This document shows positions 23,389-53,942 of a stretch of DNA of 64,000 nt, in pieces. The DNA is from a virus, in IMG/VR virus record IMGVR_UViG_3300034111_001103, positions 64,001-128,000 of that record; one strand, given 5' to 3'. Each line of letters starts with the position of its first letter. Position 1 is the first letter of the stretch. Position numbers and translations under genes: made by a program. The notes under the pieces are model-generated. The model had not been told where the DNA came from, made no database searches, and saw only the letters and a list, made by a program, of their open reading frames with translations.

Positions 23389-23694
23389 ATGAAACAAGTA
23401 AATATAAAAAAACAAAAAATAGTATTAACAGGATATTTATTTAATATATTACCTGGAATTTTAATAACAGATGATCATAAAGAACAATTTGAGTATCATT
23501 TTGAAAAAAAAGATATATTAGATATTATACTAGATAATATTTCTGACTATAACAGTAAAAAAACAGTAACTTTAGATAAGTTGACAAATCAAGAAATTAA
23601 CAAAGCTGTTTATATTTGTCAACAAATAGTTCAAGATGTAGACTATGCTAACAATTTATTTGCTTTGAGTAAAAAATATAGAGGTTTATTATAA
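23389..23694 (+). CDS. hypothetical protein
   Basis: ORF track. Confidence 0.7.
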   Translation: MKQVNIKKQKIVLTGYLFNILPGILITDDHKEQFEYHFEKKDILDIILDNISDYNSKKTVTLDKLTNQEINKAVYICQQIVQDVDYANNLFALSKKYRGLL

Positions 23695-24245
23695 TGAAAA
23701 CTATATTTTCAGATAAATCAAAGATAATTGACCTTTGGATAGAACAAAAACAAGATTTTGCTGGGACTCCTTTAAGTGTAATAACAGATAGTAGTATAAA
23801 ACAAAGAAGATTATTCTTTAAAGGAGATACTATTTATAGTTATAGAGAATCTTATCCTTTAGCTAGATTATTAGGAGATAAGATATATTTAAGAGAGGAA
23901 AATTATAGTAGAACAACAAGTAAACAAAAACTTTGTATACAAAGTAGGGCTTTAAAATATAATAAAAAAATAATATTTTCAGATGATTTGAAAAATGAAA
24001 ATATTAAAGATAAAAAATTACAAATTGCTTTAGAAAAATTATTAAAAGCTAGACTTTGGAAAGATTATTATATTTATGCTATTTCTAATTTAATAGCAAA
24101 TAATGAAAATAATCTTATAACTAAATCTAAATTTCCTTTATTATTTGATGAAAAACATGAAAAAGTAAAACAAATGTTATTTTCTCAAGATAATGAAACA
24201 GTTAATTTAGCAATAAAAATTATAAAACAAGAAAAACTAATATAA
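23694..24245 (+). CDS. hypothetical protein with C-terminal SxDxE motif
   Basis: IYSY..YSRTTSKQ phage motif; MLFSQDNETVNLAIKII. Confidence 0.75.
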   Translation: MKTIFSDKSKIIDLWIEQKQDFAGTPLSVITDSSIKQRRLFFKGDTIYSYRESYPLARLLGDKIYLREENYSRTTSKQKLCIQSRALKYNKKIIFSDDLKNENIKDKKLQIALEKLLKARLWKDYYIYAISNLIANNENNLITKSKFPLLFDEKHEKVKQMLFSQDNETVNLAIKIIKQEKLI

Positions 24246-24246
24246 T

Positions 24247-24504
24247 ATGTATGCAATAAAAGTAAAAAATAAAGATTTATATTTAAATCTTGATAGTCTA
24301 ATAGGATATTTTATATCTTCTTATCCTTATATAGCTTCTAAAAAACAAATAACAGATATTTTTTTAAATATTAATTCTGAAAAACCTTATTACGAAATTA
24401 ATTCTAATACAGAAGAATTAAGTTTTGAAGATGATATAAAAAATTATATATTAGAAAATATTGAAGATTTAGAAATTAAAGAAATAAAAATAGAATTAAT
24501 ATGA
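24247..24504 (+). CDS. hypothetical protein
   Basis: ORF track. Confidence 0.6.
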   Translation: MYAIKVKNKDLYLNLDSLIGYFISSYPYIASKKQITDIFLNINSEKPYYEINSNTEELSFEDDIKNYILENIEDLEIKEIKIELI

Positions 24505-24608
24505 CAAAATCAAATGAAAAAGAAGCTATCTCGTATTAAATAACAGAAATGTAGGATACTATCAACAAAAATAGTATTTTTGAGGATAATAATCAACAAT
24601 AATAAAAT

Positions 24609-24678
24609 AGTCAGGTGGCGTAAGGGAAACGCAGTCTCCACAAAGAAAGAAAGCAGGTTTGAATCCTTGTCCTGACTA
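24609..24678 (+). pseudogene. tRNA-like element with degenerate anticodon arm
   Basis: Acceptor AGTCAGG/CCTGACT, D-stem GCGT/ACGC, GGTTTGAATCC T-loop; no canonical anticodon stem. Confidence 0.6.
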
Positions 24679-24692
24679 CAAAAAATAAAAAA

Positions 24693-25058
24693 ATGATAAT
24701 ATTTAAATTTACACTATATACTTTAATTCTTAGTTATAGTCCTTGTGATGTATTTAAACATTTTAATGTAACTGAAATGCATGGTCTTAATTTAGTTGAT
24801 TGTGAAAAATACAATAACACTAATGAAGATGCTTATATAGCAGGTTTTTGTAATGTATCTCCTATTGATGGTAAACCATTTGTGTTTATAAATTTAAGTA
24901 GATGTAATAATGATGTTGAAACAACAGCATTAGTATTTCATGAGATGATGCATCTTTCAGGTATAAAATATAATGATGAATGGTTATCTAATGAAGAAAA
25001 TATGATAACATTTGCAGAAAATGAAACATATAAAGTTGTTAAACTAATTAAAAAATAA
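24693..25058 (+). CDS. putative zinc metalloprotease
   Basis: HEMMH (HExxH) plus downstream EE. Confidence 0.65.
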   Translation: MIIFKFTLYTLILSYSPCDVFKHFNVTEMHGLNLVDCEKYNNTNEDAYIAGFCNVSPIDGKPFVFINLSRCNNDVETTALVFHEMMHLSGIKYNDEWLSNEENMITFAENETYKVVKLIKK

Positions 25059-25061
25059 TAA

Positions 25062-25199
25062 AATGGAAAAATTTTAATTTTTAATTCTATTTCAGAAGCT
25101 TCTAAAATTTTAAATATTAACATTAGTAATATTTCTAGAATAGCAAAAGGAGAAAGAAAAACTAGTAAAAAATTAAATATGACATTTCAATTTATATAA
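25062..25199 (+). pseudogene. NUMOD1 remnant of a homing endonuclease
   Basis: Startless frame NGKILIFNSISEASKILNINISNISRIAKGERKT..FQFI*. Confidence 0.6.
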
Positions 25200-25218
25200 A
25201 TTATAAAAAAAAAAGAAT

Positions 25219-25611
25219 ATGAACCCACATTTGCATTCAAAATCCTCTGTAAAGCGTTGGGGAGGAAAAATAGAAGACTACATAGAATTACATAAATTTT
25301 TAGATAGTCCAAAATCTTGTATGAATAATAATACTTCTAGGATGTTAACACACAATACTTGGTTTATTTATGAAGTTATTCCTAGAGTATTTGGTTATAA
25401 TATAATAAACTCAGAAGGAAAATCTGTAGATACTGTAGATATAGCTATGTTACATGTGAGTGAAGACTTTAGACATAAATTTATACCTACTCCACAAGAT
25501 TATTTAAAAAATATGAAAATACAATCTTGGATGAATAATGGAGTAAAAGATATTGATAATCCTGATTCAATAGAATTAGCTAAAAAAGTAATAGAAAAAT
25601 GGAAAAATTAA
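25219..25611 (+). CDS. conserved phage protein (DUF6915-like)
   Basis: P..H..SS..RWGG..DY..LH.F.DS.K..HV.ED..IPT..DY. Confidence 0.75.
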   Translation: MNPHLHSKSSVKRWGGKIEDYIELHKFLDSPKSCMNNNTSRMLTHNTWFIYEVIPRVFGYNIINSEGKSVDTVDIAMLHVSEDFRHKFIPTPQDYLKNMKIQSWMNNGVKDIDNPDSIELAKKVIEKWKN

Positions 25612-25728
25612 TAAAAATTAAAAGATGGAATGGTTATTAGTAAAAATAAATAATGAAATAGATGTTATTTGGAATTGGGAAGTGTATAATATTAATTTAA
25701 AATGGAAATCTTGTAAAATAATTAAAAA

Positions 25729-26340
25729 ATGGAAGAATTAATAAAAGAATGGTTAGATAAAAAAATAGATAGAGCAGAATTTGAGTTTAGTTGTGGGGGA
25801 GATTCTATGAATAATATTTCTTTAATCTTCTTTGATAAAGAAAATAAAGAGGTTATTATGAGTGATGAAAGCAGAGAAACCCTAGATGATAATATTTATG
25901 AAAATGTAGAATTTTATGAAGACTCTGATGGACATTATCAAGGAGAATTTGGAAAAGTTTTAATTGAATTTGATGAAGAAGAAAATGAATTTAATTACAG
26001 TAAAAGTGCTACAGAAGAATGGTCAGAGTCTTTTACTGATATTATAAAATTAGAAATAACTCCAGAACTACATAAATTCTGTAAAGAGTATGTACTTGAA
26101 ATATCAGGAGAGTCTGATTTTTTAGATATTGAATATGCTAAAGATTTTTACATTAATTCAGAAAAATGTAAAATGCTTGAAGATATTCAAGAAATTATTA
26201 ATGAAGCTATTGATAATCATGAACCAGAAAATACATTAGCAGGAGAATTAGAAGATTATGTAAATATGTCTAACTTTGCAACTATTGATAACAATAAAAT
26301 AAAATTTAACTATGACTATGGAAAAACAGTTTATAATTAA
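25729..26340 (+). CDS. acidic conserved phage protein (DUF6878-like)
   Basis: FSCGGDSM motif. Confidence 0.7.
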   Translation: MEELIKEWLDKKIDRAEFEFSCGGDSMNNISLIFFDKENKEVIMSDESRETLDDNIYENVEFYEDSDGHYQGEFGKVLIEFDEEENEFNYSKSATEEWSESFTDIIKLEITPELHKFCKEYVLEISGESDFLDIEYAKDFYINSEKCKMLEDIQEIINEAIDNHEPENTLAGELEDYVNMSNFATIDNNKIKFNYDYGKTVYN

Positions 26341-26614
26341 ACATGATAAATACAGCCTTAAACAAGGAATAAGATTCTTAAAAACCACTGTAACAAACAA
26401 TTATGATGAATTACCAGAGTATTTTAAAGATGAAGAAGTTAAAAATAGTTGGGATTTATATGAAGGTATACCTTTAAAACTGTATCAAATGACTCAATCT
26501 AAAGATGAAGAAACTTTAGAATTAGCTATAGAATTATTAAGAAAAGCTGATATTAAATTTACATATAGAAAAAACCATTTTGGACCAAATAAAATAGAAT
26601 TATGGAACAATTAA
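26312..26614 (+). CDS. hypothetical protein with SxDxE motif and IELW tail
   Basis: MTQSKDEETLELAIELL; ends IELWNN overlapping the next ATG. Confidence 0.7.
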   Translation: MTMEKQFIIKHDKYSLKQGIRFLKTTVTNNYDELPEYFKDEEVKNSWDLYEGIPLKLYQMTQSKDEETLELAIELLRKADIKFTYRKNHFGPNKIELWNN

Positions 26615-28974
26615 AAATTAAAAATGATACTACAAAGCTACAACAACTTTTAGGATCTAAATTATATTCAGATAAATATAGTTTTATATCAGAAGCTTTA
26701 CAAAATAGTACTGATGCTATGCGTAAAATAGGTAAACAAGAAGAAAACTTTGATATAGGTATAAAACAAGTAGATTCTGATTTTTATTTTTATATAAGAG
26801 ATTATGGTTGTAGTTTTGATAGTATAGAAGAATTTAAAAGATTAGTAGGTACTCTTTTAGAGTCTAGTAAGACTCAAAGTAAAGATAGTACTGAAAATCA
26901 AGAGCTAGGAAAGTATGGGATAGGATCCATTAGTTTTAGTGCATATCAAAAAAGCTGTAATTATATAGTATATAAAAATGGGAAAGGGTTTAAAGCTAGA
27001 CTAGAAGAAGTTGAAAACAAAGGTTTATTTATAAAATGTGAAGATTATTTTGAAAGTGATGAGCCTCAAGGAGTTTACTTTGAATTAATAATTGATAAAT
27101 ATGATTTAACTACATTTTATGACAAACTAATAGAAAAATCTAAATATTTTCAAAATATTAGATTCAAATTTGATTTAAGTTTTATTAATTCTCAAAAATA
27201 TATAAAAGAAGAATTATTAGAAATTAACGACAAATTTGCAATATATAAGTCAGATGACTTTCAATTTAGTACTTTAAATCAAGATAAATACTTACATATT
27301 TGTTTAGATCAATATAGTTATCCTATTAAATGGGAAGAATTAGGTATAGATAAAATTTCAATGCCTATAGCATTAAGATTTAACTTAAATGATTTTGAAA
27401 CTAATCCTACAAGAGAAGTAATTACTATAGAAAAAGATTATAAGGATAAAGTATTAAATAAAATTAAAAAAGTAGCTGATTGGTTTTACAATAAATATAA
27501 TGAAGAAAATCCTGTAAAAGAATGTACTAATATGTTTAATTTTAGAGATTCTATAGATAACTTAAGAGATGTTATAAAAATAGGAGAAAATACTTTTTAT
27601 ATTAATAACTTAAAAGCACATACTGATATTATTTTAAATAAACCTGTTTATAAAGAATATTCTTATACAGATATTAATAATTTTAGTAATTTTATGTCAC
27701 AAACCTGGAGTATGCATTATACTTTAAAATATAGTCTAAAGCATAATGTGTTGGCGAGAAATGGTTTTAGTAGATATTCAGAAAATAATAATATTTTTAT
27801 GGGTAAATCTTTAAAAAGAGTAGAACAAGAATATTATAAATCTTTAGGAGAACTTTTTAAATTTTATAATAAATCTGAAGTAATTTATCATAAATTATAT
27901 GAAGAAATTATAGATGAAGTTGGAAATATTACTTATAAATCAAGAATATGTTTTTTAAATTATGTAGGTAAATCTATGGAGAAATATCTTGAAGATGAGG
28001 TTTTAAAAGCATATGTAGATACTGAATATGATAAATTTATGAAACTAAAGGAAGAATTTGAAACTTTATGTTTTAAAAATATTGAAATTCCTAAAGAATT
28101 CTTAGATAAAGCTAAAGTTGTAAAAGAGTCTAAACCTAAAGTAGTTAAAAACAATGACCAAATAATACTTAAATATCCTAGAAAACCACAAAAATGGATT
28201 AGTTGGAATGCAATTTGGGAAGATACAGCTGTAAATATATTAGATTTAAGAAAATTACCTAAGTTACATATCTATGGTTTAGAAAGTCAAAGAAGAAAAC
28301 TAGAATTTATATTTACAAATCTTAAAAACAGAATTAACAATTTAGAACTTATAATGGTATCAGAAAAAACAAAGAAAATGATAGAACAAGAAAATCCACA
28401 TAATTTTATTTATATAGAAGATTTAAAATCTAGATTAGATTTAATGAGTAAATATGTAACAGCTAATTATATCAGAATTAATTTAGAAAAACATAAAGAA
28501 GTAGTAAATCATACTAATATTAAAATCATAAAAGAACATATTTCTACTAAAATAGGAGATGATTTGTTACATTTAATGAATTTTTTACAAAAATATAATA
28601 ATGAAAAGTTATTTGAATATCCTTCTGAAGATCAAGTACATTTCTTAGAAGAAATCTTCAATCTTTTTAAAGATAATCCTAAATTATATCATCAAGAATA
28701 TATTGATTTATTCAATAGATTAGATAAAAACTTAGAAAAATTAGATTTTGTTCCTTTATTTACTCAACAATTGTATTATTTAGATAGACAAGATATGAAA
28801 TTAGATTATACAAGAGCACAAATTGCTTTAAAAACTATGAGAGATTTATGTAAATATAAACAATTAAGGATGGATTGGGGATATTATGTATTAGATAAAG
28901 TACAAGAAGTTATTACTCCAGTAGAAGAAGAATTAAAAATTGATATTTTAGAAGAAACAGAAAATTTTGCATAA
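26602..28974 (+). CDS. rIIA-like protein with N-terminal Hsp90/GHKL ATPase domain
   Basis: LYSD..SEALQNSTDA, IRDYG, LGKYGIGS, NPTRE. Confidence 0.85.
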   Translation: MEQLKIKNDTTKLQQLLGSKLYSDKYSFISEALQNSTDAMRKIGKQEENFDIGIKQVDSDFYFYIRDYGCSFDSIEEFKRLVGTLLESSKTQSKDSTENQELGKYGIGSISFSAYQKSCNYIVYKNGKGFKARLEEVENKGLFIKCEDYFESDEPQGVYFELIIDKYDLTTFYDKLIEKSKYFQNIRFKFDLSFINSQKYIKEELLEINDKFAIYKSDDFQFSTLNQDKYLHICLDQYSYPIKWEELGIDKISMPIALRFNLNDFETNPTREVITIEKDYKDKVLNKIKKVADWFYNKYNEENPVKECTNMFNFRDSIDNLRDVIKIGENTFYINNLKAHTDIILNKPVYKEYSYTDINNFSNFMSQTWSMHYTLKYSLKHNVLARNGFSRYSENNNIFMGKSLKRVEQEYYKSLGELFKFYNKSEVIYHKLYEEIIDEVGNITYKSRICFLNYVGKSMEKYLEDEVLKAYVDTEYDKFMKLKEEFETLCFKNIEIPKEFLDKAKVVKESKPKVVKNNDQIILKYPRKPQKWISWNAIWEDTAVNILDLRKLPKLHIYGLESQRRKLEFIFTNLKNRINNLELIMVSEKTKKMIEQENPHNFIYIEDLKSRLDLMSKYVTANYIRINLEKHKEVVNHTNIKIIKEHISTKIGDDLLHLMNFLQKYNNEKLFEYPSEDQVHFLEEIFNLFKDNPKLYHQEYIDLFNRLDKNLEKLDFVPLFTQQLYYLDRQDMKLDYTRAQIALKTMRDLCKYKQLRMDWGYYVLDKVQEVITPVEEELKIDILEETENFA

Positions 28975-29249
28975 TGTTAGAAGAAAAAGAAGAAAAAGAA
29001 CCTATAAAAAATGAATTATTGGAGCAATTGATTAATTCTGAAATAGAAGAAAATAAAGAATTTGGGAGTCTACTTTTGAATTCTGAAAATATTCCTCAAG
29101 AAGAAAGAGAAGTCTATATAAATCAATTGCTTAAAAAATTCTTAAGTAGTAATAACTTAAATATATCTATACAAGTATTAGAAAATGTTATAAATGCAAG
29201 AAATAATTTAAACATTAATTATGCTAAAAACAAAATAAAGAAAATATGA
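28974..29249 (+). CDS. hypothetical protein (SxDxE-like motif)
   Basis: LINSEIEENKEFGSLLL. Confidence 0.65.
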   Translation: MLEEKEEKEPIKNELLEQLINSEIEENKEFGSLLLNSENIPQEEREVYINQLLKKFLSSNNLNISIQVLENVINARNNLNINYAKNKIKKI

Positions 29250-29887
29250 TAAAACAATATAAACCAGGAGATACTTTACTAAAAGTTGATTATGATAATA
29301 TAAAAAATAAACTAAACAATCTTCCAAAAAGTTCTACTTTAGAAGAAGGAAAAACTGTATATTTTAATAAAGCTGTACAAACTTCTAGAACAGAATTTAA
29401 AAAACAATATCCTACTAATAAAATAGTACATGATCTTTCAAAAGCTAATTATTATATAACTAATAGTTTACCTTATATAACTTATTATTTTGAAAATGGT
29501 TTACAAGTAGTTGCAACTCTTATAATATCTAATGATAGTTGGAGATCAAAAGAATCTTTAAATAATCTTAATTTAGCATGTATTTTAGCTAATACGCCAG
29601 AACTCAAATTTATTTTTCCAGAAAATATTAAATTTAAATCTTCTAATACTGATTTACCTGAAGAAATGATTGAAAGAATAACATTAATGTTAAAATCTTC
29701 AGATCAAGAAACATTTAATTTAGGTTGGACTATATTATGGGAATATGATCATAGTTTAAATAGAGATAAATTTTTAGTTATTTTAGCTAATTCTCATCCT
29801 ATGTCTTATTATAGGAGAAAAAAGTCTAGAATTATAGAACAAAAATTAAAAATATTAAAAACATTTTATCCAAATAAAAACTTTTAA
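29246..29887 (+). CDS. hypothetical protein with SxDxE motif
   Basis: MLKSSDQETFNLGWTIL. Confidence 0.75.
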   Translation: MIKQYKPGDTLLKVDYDNIKNKLNNLPKSSTLEEGKTVYFNKAVQTSRTEFKKQYPTNKIVHDLSKANYYITNSLPYITYYFENGLQVVATLIISNDSWRSKESLNNLNLACILANTPELKFIFPENIKFKSSNTDLPEEMIERITLMLKSSDQETFNLGWTILWEYDHSLNRDKFLVILANSHPMSYYRRKKSRIIEQKLKILKTFYPNKNF

Positions 29888-29897
29888 ATAAAAAAAT

Positions 29898-31094
29898 ATG
29901 ATAAATACAGAATTAAAACCTTCAGAAGTAGTAGAATTATTAAAATATGTAATTCCTCAAAACATAAAATTAGCAGAAAAAGGACATCATCCAGTTGCTT
30001 ATAATATAATAGGAGAACCTGGTATTTCTAAATCAGCTGTAGTAGATCAAACAGCTAGAGAATTAAACACTCATCATTATATATCATTAAATCTTTCAAT
30101 GGCTGAAGTAGGTGATTTAATTGGATTTCCTATAACACAATACAAAGTTTGTAAAAATGAAGAATGTTTGTGGATAGGAGATAAATTATTAAATGATTAT
30201 ATTTTACAAGGTTATCATGCTAATGGAGAAAGTAGAATGAGTTATGCTAAACCTGAATGGTTAGTTGGAAAAGAAGATAAACCTGTAATATTAAATTTAG
30301 ATGATTTTTCCAGATGCTCTCCTATGATGATGAATGCTTGTATGCAATTAATTGTAGCTCAAGAAACAATTTCTTGGACATTACCAAAAGGTAGTACTGT
30401 AATTTGTACTTCTAATCCTGATGATGGGGATGAAAGTTTTTCAGTTACAACAATGGATGAAGCTCAAAAAACTCGCTATATCCCTATAAGAATGAAAGCT
30501 AGTGTAGAAGATTGGGCATTAAACTTTGCAGAAAAAGCTGAAATAGGAAGTCCTTTTATAAATTTTCTTTTAAAAAATCCTGAAATAATAGAAGGGTCTA
30601 ATGTAGATGCTGATGGTAATCATTGTAAAAAAGGAAATTTAAGAATTTGGACTAAATTTTTCCAAGCTTCAGAAGGATTATGTAATAATTTATCTGATAA
30701 TTGGAAGATAGTCTTTAATTTAGGACAAAATGCTGTTCCTCAAGAACATCTATTAATGTTAAATAAGTTCATAGAAGATAAATTAGACAAATTATCTACT
30801 CCAGAACAATTATTAAAGATGAAACCAGAAGATGCTTTAAAAGACTTAAAAACTTGTATTGGTGAAGGTTCTAAGAAAAGAATAGATATTTCTTCCATAA
30901 TGAGTAGAAGAGTTATGAATTATGTGTTAGTAAACCATAAAAATTTCACTAAAGATATGATAAATAATTATGCTGAAATTATGGAATCTGAATATATGAG
31001 TCCTGATCTTGTTTTACTTTCAGTTAAGAAAACTACTAAGTTATTTCCAGAGTTGATCAAGCGAGAAAAATTAATTAAAATATTAACTACTTAA
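29898..31094 (+). CDS. MoxR-like AAA+ ATPase
   Basis: GEPGISKS, EVGDLIGFP, LNLDDFSR, TSNP, MDEAQKTR. Confidence 0.88.
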   Translation: MINTELKPSEVVELLKYVIPQNIKLAEKGHHPVAYNIIGEPGISKSAVVDQTARELNTHHYISLNLSMAEVGDLIGFPITQYKVCKNEECLWIGDKLLNDYILQGYHANGESRMSYAKPEWLVGKEDKPVILNLDDFSRCSPMMMNACMQLIVAQETISWTLPKGSTVICTSNPDDGDESFSVTTMDEAQKTRYIPIRMKASVEDWALNFAEKAEIGSPFINFLLKNPEIIEGSNVDADGNHCKKGNLRIWTKFFQASEGLCNNLSDNWKIVFNLGQNAVPQEHLLMLNKFIEDKLDKLSTPEQLLKMKPEDALKDLKTCIGEGSKKRIDISSIMSRRVMNYVLVNHKNFTKDMINNYAEIMESEYMSPDLVLLSVKKTTKLFPELIKREKLIKILTT

Positions 31095-31107
31095 TAATAA
31101 TAATAAT

Positions 31108-31145
31108 AAAAGTGGTATATTTGTAAAAGAGTATACCACTTTTTA
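31108..31145 (+). terminator. hairpin terminator overlapping a TATATTTG -7 box
   Basis: AAAGTGGTATA...TATACCACTTT followed by T-run. Confidence 0.55.
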
Positions 31146-31157
31146 AATTTTATAATT

Positions 31158-31451
31158 ATGATAGAAGAAAAATGGGCACAAGAATTTCAATATTTATATT
31201 CAGATGATACAGAAATAGTTTGTTTATATTTAAATATAATTTATGAAAAATATGGTAAAGATGTTTTAATAGACTATTTTAAAGCAAAAGAAGATATGGA
31301 TAGGTTATTTTATGCTTATGGTGATCCTACAACTAATACTTTAATAGCAATATCAACAAATTTTAAACCTACTTTTTATTTTTTATTTGAAAATAATAGA
31401 TTTATTTCTAGATCTGAACAATTGAAAAATAATAAAAATCTTATAATATGA
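31158..31451 (+). CDS. SxDxE-family small protein
   Basis: YLYSDDTEIVCLYLNIIYEKYG. Confidence 0.75.
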   Translation: MIEEKWAQEFQYLYSDDTEIVCLYLNIIYEKYGKDVLIDYFKAKEDMDRLFYAYGDPTTNTLIAISTNFKPTFYFLFENNRFISRSEQLKNNKNLII

Positions 31452-31696
31452 CATTAAAAAAAGCATTAGAAGGGGATGATTTAGATATTATAAATCTTTA
31501 TTTACAAATAGTATATCAAAATGAAGGTTTAGGAGCTGTTACTAAAGCTTTTGAAGGAACAAAAAAGTATTCATTTTATGAGTTAAATGGTATACTTACT
31601 TTATTAAGATGTAATGCTTTTTATGAAAATATGTGGTTAAAAGATCCAACTAAATCCATTTTAATAGAACTTAATAATAATGATGACAATGATTAA
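31448..31696 (+). CDS. SxDxE-family small protein
   Basis: ALEGDDLDIINLYLQIVYQNEG. Confidence 0.75.
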   Translation: MTLKKALEGDDLDIINLYLQIVYQNEGLGAVTKAFEGTKKYSFYELNGILTLLRCNAFYENMWLKDPTKSILIELNNNDDND

Positions 31697-31946
31697 AGAA
31701 TTACAAAATCTATTTAAATTTGTAAAATCTAAAGATAGAGAAATATCAGAATTATATTTAAAATTAGTATTAGATAAGTATAAAATTGATATAGTTGAAG
31801 ATTATGTTTTTAGATATGAACCTAATATTATAATAACAAACCATTTAATACCTCAAGTAAAATCTATTACTATAAGATTATTTGCTACCCCAAATTATTA
31901 TTATGAATATGATACGAAGATAAAAGAATTTTTAAATTCTCGTTAA
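31680..31946 (+). CDS. SxDxE-family small protein
   Basis: FVKSKDREISELYLKLVLDKY. Confidence 0.75.
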   Translation: MMTMIKELQNLFKFVKSKDREISELYLKLVLDKYKIDIVEDYVFRYEPNIIITNHLIPQVKSITIRLFATPNYYYEYDTKIKEFLNSR

Positions 31947-31959
31947 ACCCTTTAAAGAA

Positions 31960-32250
31960 ATGAAAAAAGAAGATTACTTAGAAAGTGATGATATAGAAAT
32001 AGCTACTTTATATGCTAATATTATATATCAAGAAAAAGGGTTAATAAATTTACAAAAACTATTACATGATAAAAATAAATATATAGTGAATGTTGAAAAA
32101 CTTAATATTACTGGTAAAGTAAAATTAGTTGTAATATGGCAAAATATAGTAAGTAAAATAATAATAGACCAAACTGAAAAACAACTAAAATATACTACTA
32201 AAGAATTTAATGATTTAATATTAAAAACAATAATTAAAAATGGAATATAA
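31960..32250 (+). CDS. SxDxE-family small protein
   Basis: YLESDDIEIATLYANIIYQEKG. Confidence 0.75.
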   Translation: MKKEDYLESDDIEIATLYANIIYQEKGLINLQKLLHDKNKYIVNVEKLNITGKVKLVVIWQNIVSKIIIDQTEKQLKYTTKEFNDLILKTIIKNGI

Positions 32251-34888
32251 AAAACAAGAAAAAGAATTACAAAATATAATATTTACTATTATAAATAATT
32301 CTAAATTAGTATTTTTTGGATTATTTTTAACTGAAGTTGGTAAGTTTTTTGATAAAAGAATACAAACAGCATGTTTAGCCAAACATCCAAATGCTAAAAT
32401 ACCTGTAATGTTATTTAATCCTGATTTTTGGGATACATTAACTGAAAAACAAAGAATATTCTTAGTTTTACATGAAACAGACCACTTAATTTCTCAGGCT
32501 TTCTTATTCTGTAAAGAATTTGGATTAGAACATCCTTTAGATAATATAGCTTTAGATCTTACTATCAATTCTAGATTAGTAAACAATTATCAAAATGAAT
32601 TAGAATTTATAGAAGGAGGAATGCTACCTAAGATTTTTCCTGAATTAAAGTTAGAAGAAGAAAAAGATAGTCTTTATTATTATAATAAGCTTAAAGAAGC
32701 TAAAGACAATAAGCAAAAATCTAAAGAGAAAGGAGAAGATAGTCAAGCAGGTGAACCTGGCAATGGTAATGGTACTTCTGGAGATAAAAACTTAGATGAT
32801 TTGTTAGATAATCAAGAAAAAATAGATAATCACTCCCAATGGTCAGAGCTTACAGAAGGTATGTCAGACCTAGAAAAAGAAGTTCTTAAAAGAGATATTA
32901 TGAGTAGATTAGATAAAATATCTGAAGAAGTAACTAAGCAAAATGGTACTATACCAAAACATTTAAAAGGACAACTAAACAAAATAACTAAAATAAAAGA
33001 AGTAGTTAATTGGAAATCTTTATTTAGAAAGTTTATTGGTTCTACTATATCTTCTGAAATACTATCAAATAGAAAAAGACCTAGTAAAAGATTTGAAGAA
33101 AATCCTTCTACTAAACATAAATTTAAAGTAAGAGGTGTATTTTTATCTGATTAAAAATTGGCATGGTTTTTGTGTTTTATATGTGGAACTATTTCTCATT
33201 AAGACTAACAAAAATTAAAAATGATTAAAAAAAAAATATGGACAAAAGAAGAAGAAGAACTTCTTAAAAAATTGATAATTGATAAAAAAACAACTGTTAA
33301 ACAATTAGAAAGTATTTTTAGCACTTTAAAATCAAACATTTATAGTAAAATAAAAAGATTAAATTTATCTTTTACAGATTATTCTTTATTAAAAAATAAA
33401 AATTATCTTATAAAAGATGATATTATAACTGATTATAAAAATGGTTTAAATTGCTATCAAATAGCTAAAAAATACAAGACAACAAACACTTCTGTTGCAA
33501 AAATATTAAAATTAAATAATATTAAAATCATACCTTATCATTTAAAAAGTGCTAAAAAATATGATTTTAATGAAAACTATTTTGATTTAATAGACACAAA
33601 AGAAAAAGCTTATTGGCTTGGATTAATATATGCTGACGGAAATATATCAAAAAATTCTTTAAGAATATCTTTAAAAATATCAGATATTGATATTTTAAAA
33701 AAATTTAAAGATTGTATAGAATACACAGGAGATATAAAAATAAGTCGGAAAAAAGATAACATTATTTATGGTAAAAATTGCAATTTTGAAGATACTGCAA
33801 CTATAAATATTTACTCAAAGCATATTTTTAATACAATACAAAAGTGGGGAGTTGTTCCTAACAAAACACATTTATTAACTTTTCCAAGTTTTTTAAAAAA
33901 AGAATTAATTAAAAGTTTTATGTTAGGATATTTTGATGGAGATGGTGGAGTGAGTTTAACAAAAAGAACAGGTGAAATTAACATTAGTATTATAGGAACG
34001 GAAATATTTATTTTAGAATATCAAAACATATTAATAAAAGAGTTAGATTTTAAAAAAACTAAACTATATGAAAGATATCCTGAAAGAAATACAAATACTA
34101 GAAATTTTAATTACGGTGGAAATAAACAATTATCAAGATTTATAGAATGGTTATATAAAGATGAACCATTATTTTTGTCCAGAAAATACAATAAATTAAT
34201 CAACAATGTCAAGAGTCCTGTAAAAAAGTAATTTTTTATAAGTATGTAGTGAATTGACTGGAAACCCCTTAGAGCTTTGTACACTCTCACAAACAGTAAT
34301 GTTTTGTGTATAGTAAAAGAGACAAAGATTGGGCAATCAGCAGCCAAGTATCCTAATTAAAGGATAAAGGTTCAACGACTATTCCAGTGATGGAAGTACA
34401 CTCAAGTGAGTGGAAGTGCTACACACCCTTATGAAAGGGTGATGATATAGTCTAATCTTATAGGAAACTATAAGCAGTTTAATAAACGAATATAAATTAA
34501 CGACTTATATTGAATACAAATGTCAAGTGGTTCAGTTAGTAATCAAGATTTAGAAAGATGTAATGCTGAATTATATAATGTTTGGAAAGCTGGAGGAAAT
34601 ATAGATTATGCTAGTTGGGATGCAGAAGTAGAACCTACTAAAAAATATGATGGTAAATTAGAAATTACAAGAACTAAATGTGGTGGCACAGATTTAAATT
34701 GTGCTTTAATAGAGACAAACAACAATTATAGACAAAAAGGTTGGAATTTTGCTATTATAACAACTGATGGATATATACCTGCTATTACTGTAAAAACTAA
34801 AATTCCTACTATGATTATTATAACTGAAGGAGGTTCCACAAGTTTTAATAATCCTTATAATTATAAAATAGTTAAAATTAATAAATAA
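32240..34888 (+). CDS. metallopeptidase-like + VWA protein (DUF2201 type), spliced: exon 1 32240-33151, exon 2 34523-34888
   Basis: HETDH, NIALDLTIN; splicing gives FLSD|SSGS (MIDAS DxSxS), then GGTD and TDGY. Confidence 0.88.
33152..34522 (+). mobile_element. group I intron with LAGLIDADG ORF
   Basis: Exon 1 ends in T and intron ends in G; core GAATTGACTGGAAA, AATCAGCAGCCAAG, TTCAACGACTA, GATATAGTCTA at about 34245-34460. Confidence 0.88.
33221..34231 (+). CDS. LAGLIDADG homing endonuclease with N-terminal HTH
   Basis: AYWLGLIYADGN and FMLGYFDGDGGV motifs. Confidence 0.9.
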   Translation: MIKKKIWTKEEEELLKKLIIDKKTTVKQLESIFSTLKSNIYSKIKRLNLSFTDYSLLKNKNYLIKDDIITDYKNGLNCYQIAKKYKTTNTSVAKILKLNNIKIIPYHLKSAKKYDFNENYFDLIDTKEKAYWLGLIYADGNISKNSLRISLKISDIDILKKFKDCIEYTGDIKISRKKDNIIYGKNCNFEDTATINIYSKHIFNTIQKWGVVPNKTHLLTFPSFLKKELIKSFMLGYFDGDGGVSLTKRTGEINISIIGTEIFILEYQNILIKELDFKKTKLYERYPERNTNTRNFNYGGNKQLSRFIEWLYKDEPLFLSRKYNKLINNVKSPVKK

Positions 34889-51875: not shown

Positions 51876-53618
51876 ATGGTAAAAAAAGTATTTAGGACAG
51901 ATTTTAGTGAAAGTATATTCAATTTTAAGTATAAGCATGAAAATGCTGAAACTTGGGAAGAATTAAGTAGAACTTTAATAGAAGATGTTTGTAGAGAATA
52001 TTTATCTAAAGAAGAAAAAGAAGAACTTATAGAAATGCATAGCAATATGGAATTTATTGCTGGAGGTAGATACTTATATTATGCAGGAAGAATTAATAAA
52101 TTTTTTAATAATTGTTATCTATTAAAAAGTTTAGAAGATTCTAGAGAAGATTGGGCTGATTTATCTTGGAGAGCTGAAAGCTGTTTAATGACTGGAGGAG
52201 GTATAGGTAATGATTATTCTATTTATAGAAGTAAAAATACACCTATTAAAAGAACAGGAGGTAAAGCTTCAGGTCCTATTTCTAAAATGAAAATGATTAA
52301 TGAAATAGGAAGAGAAGTAATGCAAGGGGGTAGTAGAAGAAGTGCTATATATGCTTCTTTAAACTGGAAACATAGTGATGCTGGGGAATTTTTACATTGT
52401 AAAGATTGGAAATCTATTCCTGTAGCAGGAGCTTTTGATGAAAATGGAAATCAATTATCTGTAGGAGACTTAAAAGAAAAAGATTTTAATTATCCTGCTC
52501 CTTTAGATATGACTAACATATCTTTAAATTATGATAATAAATTCTTAGAAGAAATATATGATAAAACTTTTGAAGAATTATTACAAATTTATAAAGAAGG
52601 AGGTAAAAATGCTATTTTTAATTTACCTATTATTAAAATTCCTATTACTTTTTTAGAAAATTGTAGACAAGCTTTAAAAACAGGGGAACCTGGAATGAGT
52701 TTTAATTTTTTTGAAAAAGTATTAGAGACCCTCAGAAATGCATGTTGTGAAGTAACAAGTGAAGATGATAGTGATGTTTGTAATTTAGCTAGTATTAATA
52801 TGTCTAGAATAACTACTAAAGAAAGATTTGAAAGAGTTTGTTATTTAGTAGGTAAATTTTTACTTTGTGGTACTATGGTAGCAGAATTACCTTATCAAAA
52901 AGTAATAGATGTTAGAGAAAAAAATAGAAGATTAGGTATGGGATTAATGGGTGTACATGAATGGTTACTACAAAGAAATAGTGGATATGAAGTAACTCCA
53001 GAATTACATAGTTGGTTAACTGTTTATAAAGAACAATCAGAAGTTGGAGCTAATGAATTAGCTATTAAATTAAATATAAATAAACCTGTTGCTTATAGAG
53101 CTATTGCTCCTACTGGGACTATAGGTATTATGGCAGGAACTACTACAGGTATTGAACCTTTATTTGCTGTAGCTTATAAAAGAAGATATTTAAAAGGACA
53201 AAAAGAATGGCATTATCAATATGTAATAGATGGTACAGCTAAACTTTTAATTAAAGAATATGGAATAGATCCTTATAAAATAGAAACAGCTTTAAGTCTA
53301 GCTAATGATTATGAAAGAAGAATTAAATTTCAAGCTGATATTCAAGATTATGTAGATATGGCAATTTCATCTACAATTAATCTCCCTAAATGGGGTACTT
53401 CATTAAATAATGATACTAAAGTAGATGATTTTGCTCATGTACTAGCTAAATATGCAATTAGATTAAGAGGTTTTACTTGTTATCCTGATGGAAGTAGAGG
53501 TGGTCAACCTTTAACTATTGTAGATTATAAAGAAGCTATTTCTCAAGAAGGGCAAGAATTTAAAGAAGAATTCTTTGATGTCTGTGACCTGACTAAAGGG
53601 GGAACTTGTGGTATTTAA
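51876..53618 (+). CDS. nrdJ: class II (B12-dependent) ribonucleotide reductase
   Basis: NCY, GGSRRSA, NACCE, CNL, APTGT, C-terminal Cys pair; no R2 subunit gene nearby. Confidence 0.85.
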   Translation: MVKKVFRTDFSESIFNFKYKHENAETWEELSRTLIEDVCREYLSKEEKEELIEMHSNMEFIAGGRYLYYAGRINKFFNNCYLLKSLEDSREDWADLSWRAESCLMTGGGIGNDYSIYRSKNTPIKRTGGKASGPISKMKMINEIGREVMQGGSRRSAIYASLNWKHSDAGEFLHCKDWKSIPVAGAFDENGNQLSVGDLKEKDFNYPAPLDMTNISLNYDNKFLEEIYDKTFEELLQIYKEGGKNAIFNLPIIKIPITFLENCRQALKTGEPGMSFNFFEKVLETLRNACCEVTSEDDSDVCNLASINMSRITTKERFERVCYLVGKFLLCGTMVAELPYQKVIDVREKNRRLGMGLMGVHEWLLQRNSGYEVTPELHSWLTVYKEQSEVGANELAIKLNINKPVAYRAIAPTGTIGIMAGTTTGIEPLFAVAYKRRYLKGQKEWHYQYVIDGTAKLLIKEYGIDPYKIETALSLANDYERRIKFQADIQDYVDMAISSTINLPKWGTSLNNDTKVDDFAHVLAKYAIRLRGFTCYPDGSRGGQPLTIVDYKEAISQEGQEFKEEFFDVCDLTKGGTCGI

Positions 53619-53636
53619 ATTAAATAAATAAATATA

Positions 53637-53942
53637 GTGATATTAACAGAAAAAGAAATAAGAGATCTTTTATCTAAAGATTTTAAACAAGTAAAGAAAA
53701 CTTCTTCAGGAGAAATATTTAATCAATATACTTATGATGAAAAAGAATGTTTAAATCTTATAGAGAGTTATATTTATGAAAGAAAAGGTCAGAAGATAGG
53801 GGATATTCAATCCCCTTCTTTTGCTCTTAAACAACATGGACAATTAGGAGGATTAGTTGCTCAACAAAGATATAACAAAATGGAAATAGCTTTTGATAAA
53901 GCTTTACAATTTTATAATGAAAAATATAATAAATATGGCTAA
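53637..53942 (+). CDS. hypothetical protein
   Basis: ORF track. Confidence 0.6.
   Translation: MILTEKEIRDLLSKDFKQVKKTSSGEIFNQYTYDEKECLNLIESYIYERKGQKIGDIQSPSFALKQHGQLGGLVAQQRYNKMEIAFDKALQFYNEKYNKYG

Follow-up and report, generated by a model that had tools for sequence, protein, structure and literature searches.

A predicted single armadillo-like hairpin, carried by eight proteins, is linked to the phage MoxR/zincin-VWA gene pair

The adaptor logic by which MoxR ATPases operate together with VWA proteins is familiar from the CbbQ-CbbO and RavA-ViaA systems. Kaur et al. (2020) reportedly described the VMAP ternary systems, in which a MoxR-VWA pair is accompanied by a variable third component. 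Here we describe a related arrangement in IMG/VR record IMGVR_UViG_3300034111_001103, a single phage contig of 168,934 bp with a G+C content of approximately 23%, of which bases 64001-128000 (64,000 nucleotides, to which all unlabelled positions refer) constitute the analysed window. Within this window a MoxR-like AAA+ ATPase and a VWA protein carrying a zincin peptidase domain are encoded amongst eight genes whose products share the short motif S-x-D-x-E-x3-L, including a 213-aa protein encoded beside MoxR that is hereafter called the hub. As in the MoxR-VWA ternary systems, an ATPase and a VWA adaptor are combined with a lineage-specific third protein that plausibly gives target specificity; unlike in those systems, the third component appears to form a new family, a zincin peptidase domain is part of the VWA protein and the arrangement is phage-restricted.

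The two enzymes have been encountered in phages before. Genes 24 and 25 of N4 are core middle genes of N4-like phages whose function is unknown (PMC4193335), and Iyer et al. (2021) described a pair comprising MoxR and a peptidase-vWA protein for jumbo phages of group 2.2, with a proposed role in virion assembly and processing (PMC7824862). The N4 gp24/gp25-type pair consists of the same two enzymes (PHROG 1297 and PHROG 1314), which are adjacent and situated among replication genes. Neither of these descriptions (PMC4193335, PMC7824862) mentions a hairpin motif, a BRCT-like/ARM-like third subunit or a swarm of small carriers, and the present locus differs from the N4-type pair further in that a GHKL ATPase joins the module.

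All of the genes discussed here are located on the plus strand and are densely packed. The 398-aa MoxR-like ATPase (N4 gp24-type; 29898..31094) matched PHROG 1297 (E 7.5e-27) and had 1641 homologues at E ≤ 1e-5, with Walker A residues G39, G42 and K45 and Walker B residues D135 and D136 invariant in alignment A1. The zincin-VWA protein (N4 gp25-type), whose gene starts at 32240, matched PHROG 1314 (E 6.9e-47); residues H78, E79 and H82 were invariant, as were D304, S306, S308, T360 and D386 of its metal ion-dependent adhesion site (MIDAS). A first-pass annotation, made from the sequence without database searches, had named both enzymes, and these matches, together with the intact Walker, HExxH and MIDAS motifs, bore it out. 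In tblastn searches the zincin-VWA protein was 21-25% identical, over 64-98% of its length, to Schitoviridae genes annotated as N4-like gp25. Both PHROGs, for PHROG 1314, and many RefSeq records of N4-like phages give this gp25-type family the label 'HNH endonuclease', which is probably a propagated annotation error.

The distribution of the motif was determined by a six-frame scan of the entire 168,934 bp, in which frames of at least 50 codons were counted. The strict pattern S.D.E...L had six matches genome-wide, all of which fell at 24183-31984, a stretch of 7.8 kb around the MoxR gene that also contained two looser copies. One copy, at 31472, reads GDDLD and is a seventh that requires a relaxed pattern. 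The relaxed pattern also matched twice within an open frame of 4728 codons and once, at 24677, in a frame on the minus strand; these three further matches lacked the rest of the consensus. The serine codons of the motif were located at 24183, 26498, 29696, 31200, 31472, 31728 and 31984, with a further copy inside the open reading frame (ORF) at 28974-29249. The eight peptides quoted in the first-pass annotation were all found in plus-strand ORFs, the positions given for them being the ORF starts, and its remarks that no copy had been noticed outside this interval and that four copies were wedged between the MoxR and zincin-VWA genes both held.

Shuffling of the ORF residues gave a mean of 1.3 strict matches, with six reached in one of 500 shuffles, whilst an extended motif pattern was observed four times against 0.08 expected. 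The probability of six random sites spanning 7.8 kb or less is about 1e-6, and the clustering is far from chance. Across the eight motif segments, third-codon positions were 52% alike, as opposed to the 45% expected from composition; this near-compositional identity indicates that the motif is conserved in protein and not as a DNA repeat, and an origin of the latter kind was rejected.

These figures also bear on the explanation by which the motif arises from chance or from the composition of an AT-rich genome, or is a ubiquitous generic HEAT-like helix cap. Such a G+C content does make peptides rich in K, N, I, L, E and D common, and the motif resembles the generic ARM consensus. Against this stand the excess and tight spacing of the strict matches, the absence of matches from non-coding frames of approximately 1.2 Mb of related loci, and the rarity of the motif in general, since a motif-only profile retrieved just 506 clusters (50% identity) at E ≤ 1e-3 from 1.84e9 representative proteins, with no tandem hairpin arrays seen among the best 150 of them. 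Genome scan and shuffles alike showed local clustering rather than a cap occurring genome-wide, the outcome that the first-pass annotation had named as contrary to its proposal, and we regard the explanation as refuted.

The association of the motif with the MoxR gene was next followed across phages, in which related loci are referred to by handles (L002 and so on). At least 560 loci were obtained in an IMG/VR scan for the MoxR clade, and 80 of these were retrieved; linkage was counted in 64 viral loci with 1.5 kb or more of sequence on either side of MoxR, at a motif cut-off of 18 bits. The motif reached this cut-off in 57 of the 64 loci, in every one of which a match was located within 2.5 kb of MoxR; 73 of the 81 matches in the 64 loci were within this distance. 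Across the scanned loci, all 94 matches of at least 18 bits were on the coding (plus) strand and none on the minus strand. Linkage persisted down to a MoxR identity of approximately 32-35%, and in five complete relatives the best motif match was always MoxR-adjacent. The MoxR clade itself is essentially phage-only, with four contigs of metagenome-assembled genomes found among 185,579 species genomes.

This persistence was observed despite rearrangements of gene order. In near relatives the order is GHKL, 91-aa gene, (183-aa gene), 213-aa hub, MoxR, small carriers and VWA, whereas in L009 and L091 (the latter with a MoxR 52% identical) the small carriers are found past the VWA gene or in the interval that separates it from MoxR. 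L011 and L012 have the order VWA, MoxR, hub, and distant relatives a small protein with an N-terminal hairpin followed by VWA, MoxR and a long hub. The number of hairpin copies ranged from one to seven or more.

The enrichment near MoxR and VWA genes also held when proteins were retrieved by motif alone. Long hubs, in which the motif falls at residues ~200-280, made up most of the 506 clusters. Three clusters were chosen for their odd architecture, without reference to MoxR, and all three had DUF2201_N/DUF2201 and a homologue of MoxR as neighbours. They were a hub of 700 aa bearing a fused PD-(D/E)XK nuclease domain (L089:6001-8103), a 141-aa hairpin protein whose gene overlaps that of the VWA protein, and a 187-aa two-hairpin protein beside a phage ClpS and several other hairpin genes. 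In L078 and L079 the hairpin is carried by a WGR-domain protein, in which it is placed after the WGR domain. Overall, the hairpin occurs fused at either terminus to unrelated domains (WGR, PD-(D/E)XK and BRCT-like). On these sequence comparisons, the link of the hairpin to the MoxR/zincin-VWA pair of the N4 gp24/gp25 type is well supported. Two further features of these contigs were observed. The L089 contig encodes a second, unrelated MoxR-VWA pair (bpMoxR PF20030 and VWA) 4 kb downstream, and in L091 a phage ClpS (L091:3771-4064; N-degron adaptor, PF02617, E 2.6e-16) is located among hairpin mini-genes between VWA and MoxR.

Relatives show a longer and cleaner form of the motif, h..ML.S.D.E[T/N]..L[A/G]..[I/L]L, in which S and D are the sole near-invariant columns; one subgroup of hubs carries E, Q or S in place of the D. 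AlphaFold2 models placed S-x-D in the turn between two helices, in agreement with the helical hairpin envisaged by the first-pass annotation, and the motif is thus modelled as the turn and flanking helices of one armadillo-repeat-like hairpin of approximately 25-40 residues. When a 46-segment motif profile was compared with PDB sequences, the best matches were the consensus-designed armadillo proteins 4rv1 (E 0.002) and 4hxt (E 0.008), E-values reached only through summed weak repeats, and the next was the core helix of STAM1. The junction of helices 2 and 3 in the ARM repeats of 4rv1 and 4hxt has the same helix-turn-helix pattern, hydrophobic-LL-x-S-x-D-x-E...A..aL, and long hubs have a conserved Asn after the motif as does ARM helix 3.

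ARM and HEAT proteins are tandem solenoid arrays, and the hairpin proteins differ in having one or two units each: a single motif stretch was present in 146 of the best 150 cluster representatives and two in the other four, whilst the window proteins have one each. Searches of the hairpin proteins against the Pfam Arm and HEAT families gave nothing significant (best HEAT_2, E 0.19), and neither Pfam nor PHROGs supplied a named family for any of them. Because structural scores were weak, Pfam matches non-significant and units single, the element is best described as a single armadillo-repeat-like hairpin and was not assigned to the ARM family. A DNA-binding helix-turn-helix was considered and rejected, given that no such family was matched in Pfam and that the motif is acidic and hydrophobic. 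From its sequence distribution, the hairpin appears to be a previously undescribed protein module that is restricted to phages and occurs once per protein, rarely twice.

The eight carriers represent four families, namely the hub and its 183-aa paralog, four small genes, a 100-aa protein and a 91-aa protein. The hub (213 aa; 29246..29887) has a predicted BRCT-like N-terminal domain and a predicted armadillo/HEAT-like C-terminal helical domain, of which the motif is the first hairpin. Its AlphaFold2 model, built on a 39-sequence alignment (predicted local distance difference test (pLDDT) score 83.5), had a helix at 139-150, a turn at S151-S152-D153 and a helix at 154-164, followed by three more helices. 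All hub-family columns conserved at 90% or above were inside the motif (M148 and S151 in alignment A3; S, D and N in A5). An hhalign comparison with a family of 330-470-aa proteins encoded beside the MoxR clade (P 97.9%, E 4e-13) identified the 213-aa protein as the short form of that family.

Structural comparison of hub residues 133-213 with VIA gave Z-scores of 5.0-5.5 to HEAT/ARM pieces (STAG2, AP adaptors, CRM1 and designed ARM), which is in the noise range for helical proteins, and residues 32-132 gave weak scores to BRCT domains (Z 5.2 for MCPH1, 4.7 for XRCC1, then 4.6 and 4.5). Pfam BRCT and BRCT_2 matched the L019 homologue at E 0.001-0.005 and one representative at 7e-4, all below the gathering score. 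A Foldseek search of the hub model against PDB gave no match at E ≤ 0.001, and the BFVD matches were uncharacterised phage proteins of 360-396 aa (prob 1.00). The 183-aa protein (23694..24245; motif score 30.6 bits with the motif hidden Markov model, HMM) is a truncated hub paralog that stops directly past its hairpin. In L012, a protein of 351 aa encoded next to MoxR aligned collinearly with it (24% over 193 aa, E 8e-7), and its L008 orthologue is encoded directly beside a 211-aa hub, upstream of MoxR. Taken across the loci, the predicted BRCT-like/ARM-like hub is the near-universal third gene and the universal carrier of the hairpin near the MoxR clade.

Between the MoxR and zincin-VWA genes are four small genes, the products of which are 97 aa (paralog 1; 31158..31451), 82 aa (paralog 2; 31448..31696), 88 aa (paralog 3; 31680..31946) and 96 aa (paralog 4; 31960..32250, overlapping the start of the zincin-VWA gene). 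They were paralogous across their first ~40 residues, as seen in blastp matches of paralog 1 to paralogs 3 and 4 (E 2e-4 and 9e-5) and of paralog 2 to paralog 4 (E 1e-5). Paralog 1 has an N-terminal hairpin and a beta-rich tail, paralog 2 an N-terminal hairpin of the GDDLD variant and paralog 3 the strict motif at 31728. In the AlphaFold2 model of paralog 4 (pLDDT 74) a helix at 3-8, the turn S9-D10-D11 and helices at 12-26 and 28-38 were followed by strands; VIA searches with the small-paralog model gave nothing over Z 4.0. By position, the four genes matched canonical-motif small genes of L008, L009 and L091, and paralog 1 was syntenic with those of L008. The view that the carriers were largely unrelated outside the motif failed for the collinear 183-aa/213-aa pair and for these four genes (E 1e-5 to 2e-4).

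The tails of the small proteins were found to turn over rapidly. Relative to L002, a divergence hotspot at 31611-32280 had 52-88% DNA identity inside a 97%-identical block of 6.6 kb, and was limited to the C-terminal tails of paralogs 2-4, the hairpin heads being identical or nearly so. Within it, DNA identity at 32007-32280 was 52-67% against 97% overall; the first 24 residues of paralog 4 were identical in L002-L007, with the remainder diverged and the tail replaced outright. The tail of paralog 2 (31631-31675) copies the C-terminal peptide of the major capsid protein, with the core WLKDPTKSIL, and compared with capsid residues 547-562 matched at 81% over 16 aa; 13 of 15 residues were identical, and the six synonymous codon differences indicate that the match has been kept at the protein level. 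The major capsid protein gene is located at genome positions 52215-53912 on the minus strand (locus L093), and was identified by PHROG 35737/11589. Both the tail replacement and the capsid-tail copy would fit interchangeable specificity parts. In L008, the orthologue of paralog 2 retains a related tail.

The two remaining carriers flank a 790-aa ATPase of the GHKL (Hsp90/MutL/MORC) type (26602..28974). Although this protein fell below the Pfam threshold on direct search, it had distant full-length homologues (24-26% identity) bearing PF13589 and PF02518, in addition to weak phmmer matches to the N-domains of TRAP1, Grp94 and Hsp82 (E about 0.01), in keeping with the earlier designation of the locus as Hsp90-like. 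The GHKL gene accompanies the module solely in the nearer clade, L008-L012. Its start is overlapped by the gene for the 100-aa hairpin protein (26312..26614; motif HMM 30.0 bits), the orthologues of which in L008 and L009 kept their position upstream of GHKL. Directly after the GHKL gene, in every case, is that of the 91-aa protein (28974..29249), which scored under the motif HMM threshold. Its hairpin is a variant, S-[D/E]-x-x-E-N-x2-h-G-x2-L-L, in which the acidic residue is shifted forward in the motif by one position, towards the S. This copy had been judged the weakest of the eight; in alignment A8, S22, E26, G31, L34 and L35 were invariant in six orthologues, and since the spacing of S, E, G and LL is unchanged the copy was considered a divergent variant and not noise.

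The best explanation of these observations, to which we assign a probability of about 0.5, would be that the hairpin, a MoxR/VWA-linked module that has spread to eight genes, mediates the assembly of diverse carriers with the ATPase/protease pair. Tandem duplication and domain shuffling in this lineage have generated one carrier on each side of GHKL, two hub paralogs and the four small proteins between MoxR and VWA. The hairpin, acting as a protein-protein assembly module, would then bring the differing second domains of its carriers to the ATPase/protease: a BRCT-like domain in this phage, a WGR domain, a PD-(D/E)XK nuclease domain or a duplicated hairpin in others, and rapidly evolving beta tails in the small proteins. 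MoxR, the VWA protein or the ARM-like domain of the hub are candidates for the docking surface, and the carriers could serve as interchangeable adaptors, regulators or pseudo-substrates. On this evidence the hairpin probably marks accessory subunits of the pair, and it may serve as the docking tag of a putative chaperone/protease machine for clients, as had been proposed initially. The replication-gene setting and the BRCT-like, WGR and nuclease partner domains suggest that such a machine would have replication or nucleoprotein complexes as its targets, a role no less plausible than one in virion assembly.

Several observations weigh against this assembly role. The four small paralogs scored poorly against the canonical motif HMM, and their membership rests on synteny and paralogy. 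Several carriers are paralogs, so local duplication accounts for part of the clustering, and the 57 loci are not independent, the hub family alone carrying much of the linkage. The structural matches to HEAT/ARM proteins (Z about 5) fall in the noise range for helical repeats, and S and D at a helix N-cap are explainable by structure alone. Hairpin fusions to MoxR, the VWA-peptidase or GHKL were not found among the best 150 of the 506 cluster representatives. Two good copies of the motif in one complete relative are 15 and 67 kb away from MoxR, and in the N4-like phage Presley, which has the pair, the motif was not found; the pair therefore needs no motif.

Some of these points are shared by the main rival explanation, in which the hairpin is no more than the best-conserved element of a locally duplicating family, tandem duplicates staying where they arise and so clustering near MoxR, whilst the proteins act singly (for instance in host takeover or anti-defence, being expressed along with the middle genes) with no shared docking. 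The paralogy of the 183-aa and 213-aa proteins and of the four small genes, the variable copy number, tail turnover resembling that of arms-race genes, the commonness of S or D at an N-cap and the lack of enzyme fusions among the best 150 representatives are all consistent with it. It accounts less readily for hairpins on non-homologous scaffolds (WGR, PD-(D/E)XK, the 100-aa and the 91-aa proteins) at either terminus, for a linkage to the pair that outlasts rearrangements at such low MoxR identities, and for the motif being the most conserved part of the hub. We consider paralogy without docking a real possibility, albeit one with the odds against it.

The mode of docking, if the hairpin does mediate assembly, may be considered in the light of the MIDAS. 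CbbO and integrin I-domains bind their targets by grasping an acidic residue. By analogy, the near-invariant turn Asp could ligate the MIDAS metal of the VWA domain, the VWA-peptidase thereby picking up interchangeable hairpin proteins. Invariant MIDAS residues, a motif in which S and D alone approach invariance, and small hairpin genes that in many loci overlap the VWA gene or directly adjoin it would be expected from this. Nevertheless, in the models the D caps the N-terminus of helix 2, a position that favours Asp on structural grounds, the hub subgroup with E, Q or S at this position lacks it, and the hub adjoins MoxR rather than VWA; a MIDAS ligand is judged unlikely. Co-folding of small paralog 4 (A6) with the zincin-VWA protein (A7), in which Mg and Zn were included, gave a score of 0.01, which, as a single pair without controls, counts neither way.

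Armadillo fragments are known to self-assemble in protein design. It is conceivable that single repeats from several chains stack in trans as a split solenoid, scaffolding GHKL, MoxR, the VWA-peptidase and the DNA-binding modules. Here there is one repeat per protein, although a tandem array is normally required of ARM repeats; the 183-aa protein stops directly past its hairpin, leaving nothing for it to pack on, and every large enzyme gene has its own hairpin-bearing neighbour. Many phages, however, have just one or two hairpin proteins, and the models of the 213-aa and 96-aa proteins show the hairpin packed on helices of its own chain; a composite solenoid is considered very improbable. A more elaborate proposal would combine these elements, with the hairpin as a portable plug by which MoxR and the zincin-VWA protein, joined by the GHKL ATPase in this clade, recruit changeable adaptors or pseudo-substrates, either through the Asp-MIDAS metal or through a trans-stacked composite solenoid, to give a programmable remodelling and proteolysis machine whose specificity evolves by swapping mini-protein tails, the capsid-mimicking tail being one of them. 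We consider this proposal unlikely.

The zincin-VWA gene of this phage is interrupted. Exon 1 (32240..33151; PF13203 DUF2201_N, E 1.4e-8) ends within the MIDAS after ...FLSD, and exon 2 (34523..34888; PF09967 DUF2201 VWA-like, E 1e-4) runs from SSGSVS... to the end of the gene and was 99% identical to L002 residues 305-425. Between them is a group I intron (33152..34522, boundaries ± ~4 nt; Rfam RF00028, 87.5 bits, E 1.5e-22) with its ribozyme core at 34198-34474 and an ORF for a LAGLIDADG homing endonuclease at 33221-34231 (plus strand; PF14528 LAGLIDADG_3, E 8e-10). The intron splits the gene exactly in the MIDAS (FLSD / SSGS), and the gene needs its splicing. The insertion was absent from L002-L009, in which the uninterrupted gene encodes 417-425 aa, the 425-aa orthologues (of L002 and others) aligning over both exons. 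L010, a 115-kb relative, has the same VWA-gene insertion, with a 95% identical endonuclease, and its MoxR gene (L010:10001-11505) has an interruption of ~300 bp that leaves two ORFs of 72 and 326 aa; Rfam searches found no intron in the interrupted L010 MoxR gene or in its VWA-gene insertion.

Neighbours of the module include a helicase, a DUF6915 protein and a reverse transcriptase of a diversity-generating retroelement, with AAA_24 and Toprim proteins in relatives and an exonuclease and DNA polymerase in Presley. The DUF6915 protein (25219-25611; PF21866, E 9e-33) is a recurrent neighbour, also present in L008, L009 and L090. Downstream, on the minus strand and partly outside the window, are two giant ORFs at genome positions 134213-148366 (~4700 aa) and 124764-134195 (~3140 aa).

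Amongst cellular systems, the E. coli yeh locus (WGR protein YehF, DUF4132 protein YehI, MoxR protein YehL and VWA protein YehP) likewise links WGR to MoxR-VWA, as in L078 and L079. It was rejected as a cellular counterpart, as no Yeh protein matched the hairpin model and the likeness is one of gene content only. Literature searches on MoxR/WGR/vWA/DUF4132, on DUF2201 in phages and on crAss with MoxR retrieved no description of the motif, and neither the hairpin family, nor the hub as third gene, nor the swarm of small carriers appears to have been described before.

The enzyme pair was already known but uncharacterised, belonging to the core genes of N4-like phages and occurring also in rV5-like, jumbo and crAss-like phages. 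A family of at least 506 clusters that is without Pfam or PHROG annotation merits definition as such. A recognisable module on accessory proteins gives the pair candidate partners, and would enable targeted binding experiments. As to what these partners may act upon, the BRCT-like, WGR and PD-(D/E)XK domains and the genome position point to DNA and replication complexes, and the capsid-tail mimic to virion proteins.

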